This document shows positions 9,127-28,396 of a DNA stretch of 28,396 nucleotides, piece after piece; position 1 is the stretch's first letter, and each line of letters starts with the position of its first letter. Source of the stretch: an uncultured archaeon (lineage in GTDB: Archaea > Asgardarchaeota > Lokiarchaeia > Sigyniarchaeales > SOKP01). The stretch is taken from contig CAYLZE010000067.1 in assembly GCA_964388035.1 (NCBI GenBank), positions 1-28,396 on the forward strand. Direction: 5' to 3'. Position numbers and translations under genes: made by a program. Under the pieces are notes generated by a model. The model did not search any database, was not told the origin of the DNA, and saw only the letters and a program-made list of their open reading frames with translations.

Positions 9127-11124
9127 TTAAATGATCCCATTATTGAGAGTAAACGTTGTTATTTTGGATCGTATCAAGGTATTGATGATTTCATCTAATG
9201 TTAGATCATCAGAATTTAACAAGCAATGAAATAGTAATCCTCCATCAATAAACCGTGCTAACCGTTCATGCATCTTAATATTATCGTAGAATGATGATGA
9301 AGAAGTTGTTTTAATGAAATTGGAATAGCATTGCGTATTATTCTTCTTTATTTGATTTGAATTTGTCTCATAATTCCTTTTTGAATCATGAAAAGGATGG
9401 GGTTGTGTTAAAACATAATTAATGTTGGTTTCTTCTCTTTTTTCTCTTATTAAGGAGTTCATTTCATTTAGGATTCTCATTCCGAACTTTGTACTATTTT
9501 CATTTCTTACAAATTCAATTCCACAATGCTGTTCAATTGCTCCAGCAAAATTGTGAAAACTAATAGACCTAATCGCCTGTTCGATACTAATTCTATTAAT
9601 ATCTCCAAAGAAACTATTTATAAACAAATCCCAAGTTTTATTCAAATGTAATTTTTTCGTAATAAAAGAAGTTTTAAAGGAAAAAAGTTCAAACACGGCA
9701 TTCAATCGCTCTTTAACTAATTCCAGAAAAATATCATCATTTCCATTAGCTTTTGAAGCGATAGAGCCGAGATTAATTAAAATCTTGTCTAATATTAATT
9801 GATTAAAAGGAATCTCCGTACTTGAACCTTTATTGATTTTTATATAAAAAGAATTGATTAATCCTTGTTTATCATCAGTATAGAATATGATTCCGTTCTC
9901 ATCCGAGGAAGTTAAATATTTCTCATGAATATCGTTAATATTATCAAGATTTGGGGGATTAGACACGTTTAATAATAAATATGGCAACTCATGAGATAAG
10001 AAACAATCTTGGTTTAATCTCAACCCCGCTAACAATTTTTTAGAGAGAGAATAATCAAGAGTTCCATCTCTTGCCTCACTAAAAAGGGAAAAATCTAATG
10101 ATAAATGCGCTCCATATCTAGTTATTTTCTTAATCAAATTCAATATCCTTGAATTAATAAGATCCACGAAAAATTCTACCTCAAAATCTTCCCAATACTG
10201 AAATAAGCACTTATCAAAATCGGTTAATACAATATCACCTGAAATAAAGGAAAAAAACTGTTCAAGATAATCAAATACTTGTAAAGTTAGTCTAGTTAAA
10301 CCCCTTAGCCCAACATTATTATAGAAATCAGTACCATTCTCCTTTTTAGCCTTTTCAATTAGACTTTTCATGTTCAAGGCGCAAGATAAGGGTTTTATGC
10401 TCCAACTATTTAAATTTAACAATAAAATCTCTTTAGATAAATATAAGTCCGCCAGGTGATTGGGTAGCAAGTTCAATAATAGAAATTGTTCTGAAACATC
10501 AGAACCTAATTTCTTCAAAAAGTGCTCGGGAGTCATGGTTTCATCATTGAACAATTTGTTCACTTCATAAGGAGGAGTACCCAATCGCGTCAAATTATGC
10601 CTAATTTTTTCCAGTCCATTTTCTATTAGAATGGCATTAATTAGTTCCCTCATGAGGGGAGCAGTTAAATATTCGATATTGATTTTATTCAATCGCTGGA
10701 TGGTTTCATTCACTATGATTTTGGCTAAACTCCGATCCAAATTTCCCTCTCGAATCAGATATTCTTCAATTTTTTCGACCTTAAACGGTTCTTTCGAGTA
10801 TTTTGAAGTCCTGATCATTTGGGCTTTATTTTCTTCATTTAAAATATCTTCAATGGTAGTAATAGTATTTAGGATTTTCTTTCCCAAAAATGTGAGAGAA
10901 TAACCATCCTCCGTTGATCGAATCAAATTGCTTGTTTTTAAGGCATTCAAATGGAATGAGAAATTTATATTAGAAGAATAGTGTGTTAAAACATCATTTT
11001 TAAGTTCCGTGAATGATAATGGATGAGAAGCACGATGAAGTTTCTTTATGATATCAATTCTAATGCCATGACTTAAAGTTCTCAATTGTTCTTCTAATAA
11101 CAAAGAAATTTTGTCGGTGTTCAT
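9127..11124 (-). CDS. ArsR-type wHTH + ATP-cone + degenerate class III ribonucleotide reductase (NrdD-like) fusion; putative nucleotide-sensing transcriptional regulator
   Basis: wHTH: LSHGIRIDIIKKL...LSFTELK...FSFHLNALK...YSLTFLGK. ATP cone: IRTSKYSKEPFKVEKIEEYLIREG...YLTAPLMRELINAILIE. NrdD-like segments: RLGTPPYEV, LLPNHLADLYLSKEI, INLGSIASKANGNDDIF, GGLLFH. No C-terminal CxxC pair or RxxGY glycyl loop. Confidence 0.82.
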   Translation of the reverse strand: MNTDKISLLLEEQLRTLSHGIRIDIIKKLHRASHPLSFTELKNDVLTHYSSNINFSFHLNALKTSNLIRSTEDGYSLTFLGKKILNTITTIEDILNEENKAQMIRTSKYSKEPFKVEKIEEYLIREGNLDRSLAKIIVNETIQRLNKINIEYLTAPLMRELINAILIENGLEKIRHNLTRLGTPPYEVNKLFNDETMTPEHFLKKLGSDVSEQFLLLNLLPNHLADLYLSKEILLLNLNSWSIKPLSCALNMKSLIEKAKKENGTDFYNNVGLRGLTRLTLQVFDYLEQFFSFISGDIVLTDFDKCLFQYWEDFEVEFFVDLINSRILNLIKKITRYGAHLSLDFSLFSEARDGTLDYSLSKKLLAGLRLNQDCFLSHELPYLLLNVSNPPNLDNINDIHEKYLTSSDENGIIFYTDDKQGLINSFYIKINKGSSTEIPFNQLILDKILINLGSIASKANGNDDIFLELVKERLNAVFELFSFKTSFITKKLHLNKTWDLFINSFFGDINRISIEQAIRSISFHNFAGAIEQHCGIEFVRNENSTKFGMRILNEMNSLIREKREETNINYVLTQPHPFHDSKRNYETNSNQIKKNNTQCYSNFIKTTSSSSFYDNIKMHERLARFIDGGLLFHCLLNSDDLTLDEIINTLIRSKITTFTLNNGII

Positions 11125-22701: not shown

Positions 22702-23030
22702 AAACGTTTTTCAAAACTAAAAGAACATTTTTATCATTCAATCCAGTTAATAATTGAAGTGATTACGGATATTGTTAGCATAATATGTTGGAAGATCTAT
22801 CTCTAATCGTTGAAGATAATTATACTAATTTCGAAAAACTTCTTAAAAGAAACATTATTTCTCCGGACATGTTCCAGGGATTAAAAAAATTAAACGGTTT
22901 GAAAAATAGAATTGTTCATGATTACAATGGTATAATTGATGAAACAGCTTGGAATTCAATAAATGAAAATAAAGAATATATAAACGAATTTGAAAAAGTA
23001 GTAAAAAAATGGTTGGAACAGCTAAAATAA
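22702..23030 (+). pseudogene. Frameshifted HepT/DUF86 HEPN ribonuclease toxin
   Basis: The N-terminal part YHSIQLIIEVITDIVS is out of frame with (M)LEDLSLIVEDNYTN...LNGLKNRIVHDYNGI (frameshift ~22780-22785, probably another near 22729). The RX4H arginine is replaced by Lys. Confidence 0.75.
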
Positions 23031-23407
23031 GGAACATGGAACAAATAAGAAAGCAAATTGAAAGGGATTTTAACTTTATTTTATCCAATCCTAAAATTTT
23101 AGGAGTAATATTATATGGATCTACGATTTATGAAAAAAACCATCAAAAAAGCGATATAGATATTTGCATTGTCACTACGTATAAGAAGCTCATAAAAGCT
23201 TATAACTACATCATGGAACACCTCAATAATAATATTTTAGTATACGATATTAGATTTTTTAAGGAATTGCCTCTCTTAATTCAAGGGGAGATAATAGAAA
23301 ATGGAATAGAGATCATTTCAAAGGATATATTTGAATTATACGAATATTTGTTTCCTTTTAGAAAAAGATATGAAGATTGGAAATTTAAGATGGAGTATTG
23401 TGGCTAA
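23009..23407 (+). CDS. Minimal nucleotidyltransferase (MntA-like antitoxin)
   Basis: VILYGS-X10-DIDICIV, YDIRFFKELPLLIQGEIIENG; overlaps the HEPN gene by 22 nt. Confidence 0.88.
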   Translation: MVGTAKIRNMEQIRKQIERDFNFILSNPKILGVILYGSTIYEKNHQKSDIDICIVTTYKKLIKAYNYIMEHLNNNILVYDIRFFKELPLLIQGEIIENGIEIISKDIFELYEYLFPFRKRYEDWKFKMEYCG

Positions 23408-23481: not shown

Positions 23482-23546
23482 TTTCAAAATGAAAAAAATT
23501 AAATAGAGTTCATAATTTCTTATCCTATTAATATTTCATTTTGAAA
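23482..23546. promoter_or_regulatory. Pair of palindromic TTTCA-N3-TGAAA sites flanking a TATA-like box upstream of the PadR gene
   Basis: TTTCAAAATGAAA (23482-23494) and its exact reverse complement TTTCATTTTGAAA (23534-23546), 52 bp apart, with TTAAATA at 23499-23505 between them. Confidence 0.5.
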
Positions 23547-23576
23547 AAAAGTCTTTTCCATCTTAAAATCACTATC

Positions 23577-24098
23577 GTGTGGCCTAAAAGGTTCGGAATT
23601 TTCCGAGAATTCATGGAAGATATTAAAACCTTATTTCTTTTCAACACCATCAAGAGCAAACCTGAAGGTCTTACTTATTATGATTTGCAGCAATACGGAG
23701 ACATCCCCCATTCCAATATCTATCGAATGATGAAAGATTTGGAAGAAAAAGGAGATTTATATCATACTGATGGATTCAGCAGTGAGACGGGGAGACCAAA
23801 ACATTTGTACTTTTTAACAAAACAAGGAGAGGTAAGGTTAAAAGAAATAAGGCTTAGTCTTGAGGACATTTTCGAATTTCTCAAATCACGATTTCCCACT
23901 TCAAACCAAAATTTCGATCATAAACTCTTTCTTCAAGAAGCCACCTTTAAAGTATGGGCAGGTCCCGTACAGTATATTCTCAAGCAAGAGAGTTCTAAAG
24001 AAGTAAAACTACAAGCTTTATCAAAAATGGAAAAAAAGGTAGAAGAGCATTTAGAAGAGATTAGAAACGCTATAAAAAAGTTGGAAAAGAATTATTGA
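23577..24098 (+). CDS. PadR-family winged-helix transcriptional regulator
   Basis: GLTYYDL...IPHSNIYRMMKDLEEKG...GRPKHLYFLTKQG plus C-terminal helices; directly upstream of the ABC exporter. Start uncertain (TTG 23541, GTG 23577 or ATG 23613). Confidence 0.85.
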   Translation: MWPKRFGIFREFMEDIKTLFLFNTIKSKPEGLTYYDLQQYGDIPHSNIYRMMKDLEEKGDLYHTDGFSSETGRPKHLYFLTKQGEVRLKEIRLSLEDIFEFLKSRFPTSNQNFDHKLFLQEATFKVWAGPVQYILKQESSKEVKLQALSKMEKKVEEHLEEIRNAIKKLEKNY

Positions 24099-24132: not shown

Positions 24133-25926
24133 TTGAATTCATTTCAAATGATCATAAAATACATATTAAAATCTAAAAAGAATGCGGTGTATACCATTAT
24201 CTACAATTTAATAGCCACCGTTTTTACGATATTTATACCAGTAATTACGGGAATGATGGTGGCAGGGTTGGCTCCCAGTGATACAAGCAATTTTAGCCCT
24301 GAAACCCTGTGGATTCTTTTTTTTATTGCCTTGGGTTGTGGATTCATGGTCTATTTATCATCACGAGCAGGCAGACTGAAGGGAGCTGTCGTTTCTGCCG
24401 GCGCTTTATACAATCTACGCAAGGATATCCATAATGCAATTTACAGGCAATCATTTTCCTATTTCGATAGCACGGAAACGGGTCAATTGATTGCACGCGC
24501 AACATCGGATGTAGAAGAAACTCAAATGATCTTCGGAATGGGAATAAATATGGGAATCTCAAGCTTGCTCCTATTAGGAGGGGTATTAATCGCAGCATTT
24601 TTATTAAACCTTCCTTTAGCATTAATCATCATAACTTTAGTTATTTTATCTTTGATTGGATCTACAATAATCGCAAAGAAAATGAAACCATTGTACCTTG
24701 AAACGCGGCAGAGTTTTGGAGAATTGACCAATACTATTCGTGAAAATATCGTCGGGGCCCAAGTGGTTCGAATGTTTAATAATCAAGATAAAGAAAGGGG
24801 AAAATTTCAGAAAAGCAATAATAGATACTTTAACGCAGCAATTCGTACAGCTCGGTTAAATTCGATATACATGCCGCTTAATTTCGTGCTAATCGGCCTG
24901 ATGATCGTTATAAATTTGTTTTTAGGAGGATTTTTTATTCTCCAAGGAACCATGACCCTGCAAACGTTAATAACGTTTCAGGGATGGATTGGAACACTGA
25001 TGTTTCCCATGGTAATGATTGGGCAATTATTTATGATGTATATTCAAGCGGACGCTGCCCTCACGCGCGTGAGACATGTTTTGGATAGCACGCCCGATGT
25101 GGTGGATTCGGAAAATGCCATTCATTTACCACTCGAACAAATAAAAGGTAACGTGGAATTTGAAAACGTATCTTTCGGATACACTCCAGAACACCGGGTT
25201 CTCCAGAATGTTTCTTTTAAAGTACCAAAAGGCAAAAAATTAGCTATTATCGGCACGACAGGTTCAGGAAAGTCCACCATCATCAATCTTCTTCCCAGAT
25301 TCTACGAAGTCAATGAAGGATCAATAACGATCGATGGGATTGATATTCGTAATATCTTATTGAAAGATTTAAGAAAGAGCATAGGAATAGTATCTCAAGA
25401 GACTTTTCTATTTAATAAAACGATTGCTGAAAACATAGCTTATGGAATGGAGAATGCAACCAGAGATGAAATCATTAAGGCATCAAAGATTGCTCATCTT
25501 CATGATTTCATTAGCTCTCTTCCAGAAGGATATGATACTAATGTTGGAGAAAGAGGAACACACTTATCGGGCGGACAAAAGCAGCGTTTATCTATTGCCA
25601 GAGCGTTAATTATTAAACCTAAAGTCCTGATTTTTGATGATTCTACCTCATCCGTTGATGTAGAGACGGAATTTAAAATACAACAAGCCTTGGACCAAGT
25701 AATGCAGGGAACCACCACTTTGATAATAACTCAGAGAATCTCCACGTTTAGACATGCGGATCAAATATTAGTGCTCGATAAAGGGCGAGTTGTTGGAATA
25801 GGTAATCATGCCAATTTATTTGAGAATAACGTCTTGTATCGTCAAATATATGAAACTTTATTTCAAAAACAAAAGGAATTAATTACCCAATCTCAAGAAG
25901 AAGTAAAGGAGGTATACGTTAAATGA
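24133..25926 (+). CDS. ABC exporter (type IV) TMD-NBD half transporter, degenerate-site subunit (TM287-like)
   Basis: 6-TM domain, Walker A GTTGSGKS, signature LSGGQ, Walker B LIFDD (E to D), switch ITQR (H to Q). Confidence 0.95.
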   Translation: MNSFQMIIKYILKSKKNAVYTIIYNLIATVFTIFIPVITGMMVAGLAPSDTSNFSPETLWILFFIALGCGFMVYLSSRAGRLKGAVVSAGALYNLRKDIHNAIYRQSFSYFDSTETGQLIARATSDVEETQMIFGMGINMGISSLLLLGGVLIAAFLLNLPLALIIITLVILSLIGSTIIAKKMKPLYLETRQSFGELTNTIRENIVGAQVVRMFNNQDKERGKFQKSNNRYFNAAIRTARLNSIYMPLNFVLIGLMIVINLFLGGFFILQGTMTLQTLITFQGWIGTLMFPMVMIGQLFMMYIQADAALTRVRHVLDSTPDVVDSENAIHLPLEQIKGNVEFENVSFGYTPEHRVLQNVSFKVPKGKKLAIIGTTGSGKSTIINLLPRFYEVNEGSITIDGIDIRNILLKDLRKSIGIVSQETFLFNKTIAENIAYGMENATRDEIIKASKIAHLHDFISSLPEGYDTNVGERGTHLSGGQKQRLSIARALIIKPKVLIFDDSTSSVDVETEFKIQQALDQVMQGTTTLIITQRISTFRHADQILVLDKGRVVGIGNHANLFENNVLYRQIYETLFQKQKELITQSQEEVKEVYVK

Positions 25927-28396
25927 GCACAGAACAAAAAACGGCATATCAAGAATCAAGTACCCAAATCAGGAAGCCCGCCACCGTTTCAAGACATTTC
26001 CATTTTGATGCAGGAGATCATGTCTTAAAACATTCGCGTAGGATTTTATGGAAGTTTTTATTCAAATATTTACTTCCACATCGCAATAGTTTTATCTTAT
26101 TTCTCATTTTACTCTTATTCGGCACCGTGGTAATGTCCTACAGTCCTTTACTGAGTGCCACTATCATAGATCAAGGTATAATTGGGGGGGATGAGCCATA
26201 TTTATTCATGGCGAGCATGATCTACCTGGTCTTGATGGTGATAATGGCAGTTTTTACATTTATAGCCCAGTATGGAATGAGTAAAATTTCCCAGAATGTA
26301 GTTTTTTCCATTCGAAATGATTTATTTTTCAAATTACAGGATATGTCATTAACTTATTTTGATAGGCGACCCTCGGGAGACATCATATCAATCCTAACTA
26401 ATGATATTGACCAGCTCAATCAATTGGTCGGAGGTCAATTTGTCCAAATTATTAATAGCGTCCTTTCCATTGGTCTTAGCGTTATTTTCATGTACATCCT
26501 CAATCCTCTCTTGGCAACCATTAGTCTCGTGGTATTTCCACTTTTCTACATCATGACTTCTGTCTTCAAGCGAGTGATTCTGAAAGCTTTTACTGCAACC
26601 AGAAAAAGTATAAGTAAAGTAACTTCATCCATACAAGAAAATATCGCAGGTGCGAAAGTAGTGAAAGCATACGCTCAGGAAAAGAAAGCGTCCACCGAAT
26701 TTGATCAGGCAAATATCGAAAATTATAACGTTTCTTTGAGAGTGAGGAGAATCATGGCATCTTTCCTCCCTTTTATAGGTTTTGTTTCAACAGGGCTTAC
26801 GGTTATTATTTTATTAATAGGCGGGTTAACCGCCATTAATCATGTCACTATTCTTGGAGTGGCTGTTACAGTAGGGGTCTTGAGTGCATATATTGCCATG
26901 TTAGCCCAATTTTTCCGCCCTTTCATGAGCATTGCCATGATTCAGCAGGTAATTGAATCAGCCATGGCGGCTAGCGATCGCATTTATTCGTTGTTAGAAG
27001 AAAGTGTAGAAATCCCAGATCCTGAGGAACCTGTAGAATTGGGAGAGGATATAAAAGGGGAAGTCGAATTTGCTGAGGTTTGTTTCGGATATCGTTTTGA
27101 TGGAAATAATGGAAAATCTGAAGTAGCAAAAGTAGAAGGCTCCAATTCTTCCGAAAAAGCAGGAGACACGATCTCACAAAATCCCATGATTAAACAAGCA
27201 TTTAAAATGATTAAGTCTTTACCAGAACCTTATTCTTCATTTCTTCTCAAAAATATCATGTACATGCCCCAAAATATTAGACAAGCGTTATTCATAAAGT
27301 TAATGCGCGAAAAGCCCGAAGACGCTCCTTCGATTATTGATAAGATTTTAGCAGAAGACGAACATGCCGTCCCGAAAACACCCCTTGCGGAAAAACATCC
27401 TGAATATAAAACCAGTTTCAAGGTTAAAGGAATGAAAAAGCAACCAATTTCTATGGGGCAAATGCTTCCACCCGAAACCATCCTCATGATGGTAAAAGGA
27501 TTGGAAAAGGCATTAAATTCCAAAGCGAGTCTTCAACAAGCAGGAGGAGGAATGGGAGGAGAAGGAGGCGGATTGATGGGAGGCGGCGGGATGTCAAGGT
27601 TTTCTCCGCAAATGATGCTTCGAACCTTGGCAACGATGCCAATACCTGATGAAATCTATAATCAAATCCCAGCAATAGTAAAAGATGCCATTCTTGAACA
27701 GAAAAAAATGATCGAATATGAACAATCCACGGGATATGTTTTAAAGGATATCAATTTCCAAGTGCCTCCAGGAACAACTTTAGCATTAGTGGGAGAGACG
27801 GGAGCCGGAAAAACTACAGCAATAAAGCTGCTTTCAAGATTCTATGATATCAATCAAGGTTGCATTAAGATAGACGGAATAGATATTAGGGAGGTTAATA
27901 AACACGAACTAAGGGGTATAATTGGTTTAGTTCCCCAAGATGCGTTCATTTTTACGGGAACAATCAAGGAAAATCTTCTATACGCGTTCAAGGAGCATAC
28001 TCCCGAGATTGAAGAAAAAATGGTGCAAATCTCAGAATTCTTGGGACTTCATAATTTTATCGATACGCTTCCTAATAAATATGATACCGTCTTAAAAGAA
28101 AATGGCTCTAATGTTTCTATCGGGCAACGCCAATTAATCGCATTTGCGCGGGCATTGATAAGAGATCCTAAAATTTTAATATTGGATGAGGCAACCTCTT
28201 CCGTGGACCCATACACGGAATTATTGATTCAAGATGCTCTGAACAAAGCCCGAAAAGGGCGCACCACGATTATAATTGCACATAGATTATCCACGATAAA
28301 GAATGCGGACCATATCATCGTATTAGGCAAGCAAAATCTCGGAGTTTTGGAAGAGGGAAATCATGACCAATTAATCGCCTTAAACGGAAAATACAA
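25923..28396 (+). CDS. ABC exporter half transporter, consensus-site subunit (TM288-like), with ~215-aa NBD insertion; 3'-truncated by the window edge
   Basis: ATGA overlap with the partner gene. TMD, A-loop FGY (27084-27092), Walker A GETGAGKT, signature VSIGQRQ, Walker B LILDEAT, switch IAHR. Absent from the ORF track, consistent with a frame that has no stop in the window. Confidence 0.93.
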   Translation, partial: MSTEQKTAYQESSTQIRKPATVSRHFHFDAGDHVLKHSRRILWKFLFKYLLPHRNSFILFLILLLFGTVVMSYSPLLSATIIDQGIIGGDEPYLFMASMIYLVLMVIMAVFTFIAQYGMSKISQNVVFSIRNDLFFKLQDMSLTYFDRRPSGDIISILTNDIDQLNQLVGGQFVQIINSVLSIGLSVIFMYILNPLLATISLVVFPLFYIMTSVFKRVILKAFTATRKSISKVTSSIQENIAGAKVVKAYAQEKKASTEFDQANIENYNVSLRVRRIMASFLPFIGFVSTGLTVIILLIGGLTAINHVTILGVAVTVGVLSAYIAMLAQFFRPFMSIAMIQQVIESAMAASDRIYSLLEESVEIPDPEEPVELGEDIKGEVEFAEVCFGYRFDGNNGKSEVAKVEGSNSSEKAGDTISQNPMIKQAFKMIKSLPEPYSSFLLKNIMYMPQNIRQALFIKLMREKPEDAPSIIDKILAEDEHAVPKTPLAEKHPEYKTSFKVKGMKKQPISMGQMLPPETILMMVKGLEKALNSKASLQQAGGGMGGEGGGLMGGGGMSRFSPQMMLRTLATMPIPDEIYNQIPAIVKDAILEQKKMIEYEQSTGYVLKDINFQVPPGTTLALVGETGAGKTTAIKLLSRFYDINQGCIKIDGIDIREVNKHELRGIIGLVPQDAFIFTGTIKENLLYAFKEHTPEIEEKMVQISEFLGLHNFIDTLPNKYDTVLKENGSNVSIGQRQLIAFARALIRDPKILILDEATSSVDPYTELLIQDALNKARKGRTTIIIAHRLSTIKNADHIIVLGKQNLGVLEEGNHDQLIALNGKY

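Follow-up and report, generated by a model that had tools for sequence, protein, structure and literature searches.

The Exporter Locus

The window analyzed here is a stretch of 28,396 nt on contig CAYLZE010000067.1 (C67) of assembly GCA_964388035.1, the genome of a Lokiarchaeia archaeon comprising 211 contigs and 5.47 Mb, and coordinates refer to the whole window unless a relative or another contig is named. At its 3' end, two adjacent genes encode a predicted exporter of the adenosine triphosphate (ATP)-binding cassette (ABC) type. The nucleotide-binding domain (NBD) of the second subunit carries an insert of 215 residues, and this insert is the subject of the present study. The two half-transporter genes are:

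24133..25926, + strand: partner half-transporter, the degenerate-site subunit without the insert; 597 amino acids (aa), ABC_membrane and ABC_tran domains
25923..28394, + strand: insert-bearing half-transporter; 824 aa, open at the contig end

The stop codon of the partner gene overlaps the start of the insert-bearing gene. About 20 C-terminal residues of the insert-bearing subunit are cut off by the contig end, its homologs being about 845 aa long. Both open reading frames (ORFs) carry PF00664 and PF00005, and in the 824-aa subunit the two Pfam domains cover aa 57-334 (ABC_membrane) and aa 607-759 (ABC_tran). The two genes are adjacent, with the partner first, in all eight loci.

The two subunits differ when it comes to their catalytic motifs. 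In all examined loci the partner has the Walker B motif FDDSTS (ILDDSTS in one locus) and the H-loop ITQR, and its signature is the canonical LSGGQ in seven of eight. The insert-bearing subunit displays Walker B LDEATS, H-loop IAHR, and the signature (V/I)SIGQ across the loci, the forms in the window being ILILDEATS and VSIGQ. The insert is thus found on the consensus-site subunit, the one with the Walker B glutamate and the H-loop histidine, in all loci examined. A first-pass annotation of the window, made from the sequence alone, had placed it on the catalytically competent NBD, and this agrees with ILILDEATS and IAHR here as opposed to FDDSTS and ITQR in the partner. Following the asymmetric-motif logic of degenerate-site exporters (PMC7756269), these motifs imply that the insert-bearing NBD gives the hydrolytic site its A-loop, Walker A, Walker B, and H-loop, and that its non-canonical (V/I)SIGQ signature completes the degenerate site. 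Judged by its motifs, the pair is a TM287/288-type heterodimeric exporter with one degenerate site, and its export function is predicted. The NCBIfam exporter models all score far under their cut-offs, and no substrate is therefore assigned.

Position and Composition of the Insert

The insert comprises aa 391-605 (nt 27093-27737) and lies between the A-loop FGY (388-390) and VLKDINF. F388, G389, and Y390 are invariant among the homologs. At the same site the partner subunit has a five-residue turn (VSFGY-TPEHR-VLQNV), while the solved ABCB4 and ABCB1 have seven residues; phmmer alignments to both end at query Y390 (chain residue 406) and restart at V606 (chain 414). This break shows that the extra residues are an insertion in the NBD hairpin formed by strands 1 and 2. 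The spacing from the A-loop to Walker A is normal, 23-25 residues, in six of the eight exporter half-transporters of the genome, and the two outliers are the window gene with 233 residues and a paralog on contig C37 with 172.

The 215 residues include 17 methionines, 20 glycines, 16 prolines, and two histidines, but no cysteine, and they contain the run GGGMGGEGGGLMGGGGM. Methionine makes up 9.9% of the insert family-wide, as compared to 3.2% of the rest of the protein and 2.4% of the long ORFs of the genome. The first-pass annotation had described 215 in-frame residues against five in the partner, with about 17 methionines and a poly-glycine linker. The ORFs and the alignment to ABCB4 and ABCB1 confirm the former, and the residue counts and the glycine run bear out the latter.

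Evidence That the Insert Is Genuine

An insert-only search matched 106 proteins with E-values from 5e-80 to 5e-15 and 42-65% identity over the insert. Nearly all of them are ABC exporters of 835-960 aa from independent assemblies found in JGI, ENA, NCBI, and Logan, and the insert is present in more than 100 such assemblies. Both insert junctions are bridged by Logan contigs, which derive from salt-marsh metagenomes of four separate runs. The junction at nt 27093 is crossed by contigs covering 26800-27536 and 26800-27314, and the junction at nt 27737 by contigs covering 27599-28000, 27691-28000, 27573-28000, and 27545-27776. The Logan contigs of all runs break only at 27520-27600, which is the DNA coding for a Gly/Met loop within the insert. 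The GC content of the insert resembles that of the rest of the gene.

Two of the runs also contain a short Logan contig of higher depth (235-236 nt, depth 11-17), which matches the gene only at 27505-27522 and 27807-27825. These stretches are 18-19 nt each, and the contig probably belongs to another organism or a paralog.

An intein was considered and rejected. The insert starts with Arg-Phe-Asp and ends with Thr-Gly-Tyr, which is followed by Val. It has no N-terminal Cys or Ser, no His-Asn at its end, no Cys, Ser, or Thr after the junction, and no Hint or intein match in Pfam. The junction residues and Pfam thus both agree with the earlier statement that intein termini are lacking, and the remaining factual claims of the first-pass annotation hold as well. 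It had also called for an insert-only search for orthologs and a test of conservation; these gave the 106 homologs, with 56-66% identity in the folded modules described below. The insert might, according to the same annotation, have turned out to be unconserved, fully disordered, or chimeric, but the homologs, the predicted folds, and the bridging contigs contradict all three.

Modules, Predicted Fold, and Conservation

An AlphaFold2 (AF2) model of the insert and its flanks was built with 96 homologs (protein numbering equals model residue + 381). It displays nine helices in two confident blocks, referred to as modules A and B. The segments are listed below with their predicted local distance difference test (pLDDT) scores and mean pairwise identities:

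27063..27092, + strand: NBD strand 1 to the A-loop Tyr, aa 381-390, VEFAEVCFGY; AF2 strand at 381-388
27093..27170, + strand: linker 0, aa 391-416; variable, predicted disordered, pLDDT <50, mean pairwise identity 24%
27171..27422, + strand: module A, aa 417-500; pLDDT 82-95, mean pairwise identity 60%
27423..27470, + strand: linker 1, aa 501-516; variable, pLDDT ~43, identity 23%
27471..27539, + strand: first long helix of module B, aa 517-539; pLDDT 74-89, identity 56%, M523 near-invariant
27540..27605, + strand: Gly/Met loop, aa 540-561, GGGMGGEGGGLMGGGGM...; predicted disordered, pLDDT 40-54, mean identity 66%
27606..27737, + strand: helices 2-4 of module B, aa 562-605; pLDDT 86-93, identity 61%
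27738..28394, + strand: rest of the NBD (PF00005) with strand 2, Walker A GETGAGKT, Q-loop, signature, Walker B, and H-loop

Module A consists of four short Met-rich helices and a YAVP..T..A..HPEYKTSF clasp. The helices of module B (aa 517-605) are predicted at 517-535, 562-571, 576-579, and 584-601, with block-mean pLDDT values of 74-93. In the model the last of these helices leads straight into NBD strand 2, and the remainder of the NBD can be aligned to ABCB4, TmrA, and TM288. The segments of low confidence are aa 391-416, 503-513, and about 537-557 (the Gly/Met loop), and disorder is predicted for about a third of the insert. In a model of the full-length subunit the transmembrane domain (TMD) and the NBD appear as expected. 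An internal duplication as the origin of the two modules was rejected, since hhalign gave a probability of 2% for module A against module B; the modules are thus not detectably related.

The mean pairwise identity is 69% in the TMD and 81% in the NBD, compared to 56-66% in the insert modules and 23-24% in the linkers. At least 94% of the sequences share six methionines (M422, M461, M523, M544, M552, and M557), the last three of them in the Gly/Met loop. This loop matches the helices in conservation despite its predicted disorder. In the most divergent members conservation is strongest in the module B motif MLxxLA...IP.E....P.IVKDAI.E(E/Q)....G(Y/F)VL, and their loop is still Gly-rich, but the loop methionines may be replaced by isoleucine.

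Distribution and Evolution

A profile made from 29 inserts was searched against 1.84 billion cluster representatives and found 12 proteins, all of which are this exporter or fragments of it; the short matches are fragments or frameshifted pieces. No stand-alone form, other domain context, or eukaryotic match was found among these representatives. Among 400 genomes of the phylum the insert was found in 90, all within four families of one Asgard order, and in no genome of the other families. Counted apart from the window's own genome, the numbers per family are 79 of 134, one of one, five of 14, and four of four. The source names of the carriers are Lokiarchaeota or Promethearchaeota, with a few metagenome-assembled genomes labeled Thor-, Hermod-, or Hodarchaeota. 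The proteins themselves are named just 'ABC transporter ATP-binding protein' or 'hypothetical' in the source databases.

The proteins fall into three architectures. Most have A+B and are about 845 aa long, others carry module B alone (about 710-810 aa), and a third type, of about 950 aa, has A+A+B. No ortholog without module B was found. In a FastTree phylogeny based on the TMD and NBD columns only, and read without evaluation of branch supports, the insert-bearing proteins form one clade apart from the insert-less paralogs. The B-only forms are scattered in this tree, while the AAB forms adjoin the window protein. The tree suggests that the insert arose once and that module A was later lost or duplicated. 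An insert-less ortholog was not found; in five near-complete genomes lacking the insert the best matches are only paralogs, with 50-54% identity in the NBD and 23-31% in the TMD, while true orthologs display 64-77% and 47-58%, respectively. The insert is a genuine, vertically inherited accessory domain, so far found only in one Asgard order.

The genome of the window encodes a second insert-bearing exporter pair on contig C37 (L039 4290-6716, - strand). The C37 subunit (808 aa) has module B and the Gly/Met loop, and a long basic linker takes the place of module A. The AAB relatives P0107 and P0001-P0008, which have two tandem A-modules, contain low-complexity linkers rich in Pro, Gly, and Met (PGMPSGGPPSMP... 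and MPPMMPGMMPGMPPGGG), and the tether of P0112 contains tandem MLAK.LPKEILAKLQPSE repeats.

Gene Neighborhood

Directly 5' of the exporter pair lies a gene for a putative regulator:

23541..24098, + strand: PadR-like winged-helix regulator; 185 aa, Pfam PadR E 3e-05

This match falls short of the curated cut-off. A PadR-like gene is found directly upstream in six of six A+B loci (the window and five others), and at the five other loci the gene is either a homolog or a clear PadR gene (PF03551, 31-68 bits). It is absent from the three B-only loci examined. The regulator in the window contains neither cysteine nor a metal motif. No PadR-like gene is found upstream of the C37 pair.

In four relatives a gene for a 265-aa radical S-adenosylmethionine (SAM) protein is located 0.9 kb 3' of the exporter pair:

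L033 10796-11593: radical SAM gene
L034 6110-6910: radical SAM gene
L035 10307-11107: radical SAM gene
L036 5796-6593: radical SAM gene

The window ends before the position of this gene. In L033, L035, and L036 it is followed by an ORF of about 480 aa, which looks phosphomutase-like judged from its N-terminal residues alone.

The remaining window is core chromosome, encoding among others RNA polymerase A'/A'', primase, and aspartate carbamoyltransferase. A HepT/MNT toxin-antitoxin-like pair is found directly 5' of the PadR-ABC operon (22785-23407, + strand). The ORF for the HepT-like ribonuclease (81 aa) is short at the N-terminus, matching only positions 49-116 of the 120 in the hidden Markov model (HMM), and it overlaps a 132-aa Polbeta/MNT nucleotidyltransferase ORF. 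Another ORF of unusual architecture (9127-11124, - strand, 665 aa) has DUF7347 in its N-terminal part and, in its C-terminal part, a match to the anaerobic ribonucleotide reductase NrdD that spans only HMM positions 283-506 of 562.

Proposed Function and Alternatives

That the insert is a real, selected, and new domain at this position is virtually certain. The selection for methionine, the flexible but conserved loop, the rigid C-terminal joint, the floppy N-terminal tether, and the variable number of A-modules all argue for a functional binding or regulatory module rather than a spacer. Our tentative proposal is that the insert binds a ligand at a pliable hydrophobic site, and that filling of this site affects ATP binding at the consensus site or NBD closure. 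The Met-rich surfaces together with the Gly/Met loop would form the ligand site, and candidate ligands are amphipathic peptides, lipophilic molecules, and helices of partner proteins. Module B appears to form a rigid joint with strand 2 next to the tyrosine that stacks on adenine, and this joint could pass the occupancy on to consensus-site ATP binding or to closure of the NBDs. Module A, being flexibly tethered and variable in copy number, might provide extra binding capacity. The domain would then be a ligand- or partner-sensing regulatory module, not a passive appendage.

A bolder version, which we regard as unlikely, holds that modules A and B are new folds forming a Met-lined client site gated by a finger loop, and that this site arose within Lokiarchaeia independently of SRP54-M, Get3, and STI1. 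It would capture clients in a chaperone-like manner, hand over a hydrophobic peptide or a segment resembling a transmembrane helix to the transport pathway, and license hydrolysis only when loaded. We know of no ABC exporter with such a built-in cytosolic cargo receptor on its NBD.

Several observations weigh against the insert being a regulatory binding site. In the full-length model it is only moderately confident (pLDDT about 57-82, predicted template modeling score 0.52), and any packing on the NBD is thus tentative. In the insert helices, conserved hydrophobic residues make up a fraction of 0.21-0.46, compared to 0.27-0.43 in the NBD helices, a range that fits a groove or none; the methionines may accordingly just form the cores of small bundles. 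Many of the conserved residues of the insert belong to polar or proline motifs, and at the sequence level no homology to known Met-rich client-binding domains is found. Absence of the insert from close relatives had been named in the first-pass annotation as speaking against such a role. No relative was found that has the exporter but lacks the insert. Several near-complete genomes of the same family, among them the one other genome in the genus, and several sister genera lack the exporter as a whole, which is thus not essential. Finally, removal of the regulatory insertion (RI) of CFTR, located at the same position, is reported to leave gating largely intact (PMC2217481), so position alone is no proof of regulation.

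Among the alternatives, a steric or autoinhibitory gate acting independently of any ligand is rather unlikely. In the inward-facing state the insert, and especially the Gly/Met loop, would sit on the NBD dimer interface or over the consensus ATP site, and it would have to move away before the NBDs close. The RI was first proposed to work in this manner and has been described as placed to impede NBD dimerization (PMC2217481), and a conserved, flexible Gly-rich loop tethered a few nanometers from the ATP site, on the hydrolytic-site subunit only, fits such a role. A gate would, however, leave the two folded modules, the duplicated module A, and the fourfold methionine selection unexplained; no phosphorylation-type switch is evident and no contact is predicted with confidence. 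Adaptor modules typically vary in copy number, as module A does, and the non-hydrophobic and proline motifs (PEPYSSF, KID, YAVP.T..A.HPEYKTSF, and IP.E.Y..IP.IVKDAI.EQ) look like specific interfaces and less like a promiscuous groove. Both features would fit a docking or scaffold domain that recruits the exporter to other machinery or to a higher-order assembly with catalysis unaffected. This is nevertheless improbable, given that no conserved neighbor other than the PadR-like regulator gene suggests a partner, and that the domain is present in no other protein among the 1.84 billion representatives, whereas a general interaction module would usually be found more widely.

The clustered thioethers (MxxM, MM, and GM) might also bind a soft metal, Cu(I) or Ag(I), or sense methionine oxidation. 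CueO, CusF, PcoC, and Ctr1 bind Cu(I) through Met-rich motifs, and dense conserved methionine motifs are found both in the Gly-rich loop and in the helices of the insert. A cysteine ligand would however be expected in a cytoplasmic domain of an anaerobe, and the insert has two histidines and no cysteine. The replacement of the loop methionines by isoleucine in divergent members, the upstream PadR-like regulator without cysteine or metal motif, and the failure to see copper-handling genes in the loci examined make this highly improbable as well. That the insert is without function has a negligible probability, whether it is read as a neutral spacer, as what remains of a degenerate intein or a mobile element, or as an error of assembly or annotation. 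It matches no known family and about a third of it is predicted to be disordered, but the 56-66% identity over more than 90 homologs, the near-invariant motifs, and the high-confidence predicted folds speak against it, as do the independent assemblies, the junction-spanning contigs, the missing intein termini, and the gene-like GC content.

Few protein modules are as conserved as the NBDs of ABC exporters. The insert indicates that the strand 1-strand 2 hairpin of such a domain can host a full, folded, two-module accessory domain by the adenine-stacking residue of the hydrolytic site. It represents a domain family that lacks annotation and is restricted to Lokiarchaeia-type Asgard archaea, and it offers a natural system for studying how ATP binding and NBD closure respond to events at the NBD periphery. 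If the methionine surfaces do bind clients, the insert would be a further independent case of methionine-based pliable binding beside SRP54, Get3, STI1, and calmodulin. As no eukaryotic homolog was found, it has no direct bearing on eukaryogenesis.

Comparison with Known Systems

The insert does not resemble any family in the databases searched. Pfam gave only scattered chance matches to the insert and 29 homologous inserts, and no NCBIfam family matched it. A search of PDB sequences with the insert profile gave only a chance match to uS15 (E 0.1), fold searches of the PDB with the insert gave no clear match, and an ESM Atlas search with a homolog gave no usable one. No paper describing this insertion was found in the literature.

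The first-pass annotation had compared the insert to the Met-rich helical domains of SRP54 and STI1. There is some likeness to both in that the insert is helical and enriched in methionine, and the flexible Gly/Met loop recalls the finger loop of SRP54, but a relationship was not borne out. A genome-wide scan with PF02978 matches only the true SRP54 on contig C76, and the SRP54 M domain was thus rejected by sequence; the STI1/HOP DP domain was likewise rejected, since a genome-wide scan with PF17830 (E<=1) misses the insert. Comparing the insert to the M domain of the genome's own SRP54, hhalign aligned eight columns (GGLMGGGM/IGMMGGGN) with a probability of 6%. This IGMMGGGN is the only stretch of the SRP54 resembling the Gly/Met loop. 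It is found in the finger-loop region of the M domain (contig C76, L040 1501-1854, - strand). None of the Foldseek or VIA matches listed for the insert as a whole was an SRP54 chain. The helical subdomain of Get3 and the lobes of calmodulin are also Met-rich client-binding domains. In Get3, the Met-rich helices are inserted in a P-loop ATPase domain, as is the insert described here.

To our knowledge, the RI of CFTR is the only insertion known at the strand 1-strand 2 hairpin. It comprises residues 404-435 of NBD1 and is found between strands 1 and 2 just past the A-loop aromatic residue (PMC2217481). By the alignment to ABCB4 the insert occupies this very site, in agreement with the first-pass annotation. 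The RI has about 32 residues, is mobile or disordered, contains a protein kinase A site, and is located on the degenerate-site NBD, whereas the insert has 215 residues, is mostly folded and Met-rich, and is located on the consensus-site NBD. No sequence similarity to the RI was found when the insert profile was searched against PDB sequences. With the RI being mobile, phosphorylatable, and on the degenerate-site NBD, the likeness between the two is positional only.

The arrangement of the genes also has a known counterpart. In Lactococcus, the heterodimeric exporter LmrCD is governed by LmrR, a drug-binding repressor of the PadR type (PMC4534193), and the PadR-like gene upstream of the exporter pair parallels this lmrR-lmrCD organization (PMC4534193). 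When it comes to the transporter itself, it resembles the type IV exporters TM287/288, TmrAB, LmrCD, and BmrCD in having two subunits and one degenerate ATP site, and the solved structures closest to the insert-bearing subunit include TM288 and TmrA (E 1e-101 to 1e-107). The solved relatives have no extra residues between the A-loop and strand 2, while the exporter described here has 215 in two folded modules. The transporter thus belongs to a known class; what is new is its accessory domain, which constitutes an undescribed lineage-specific family.

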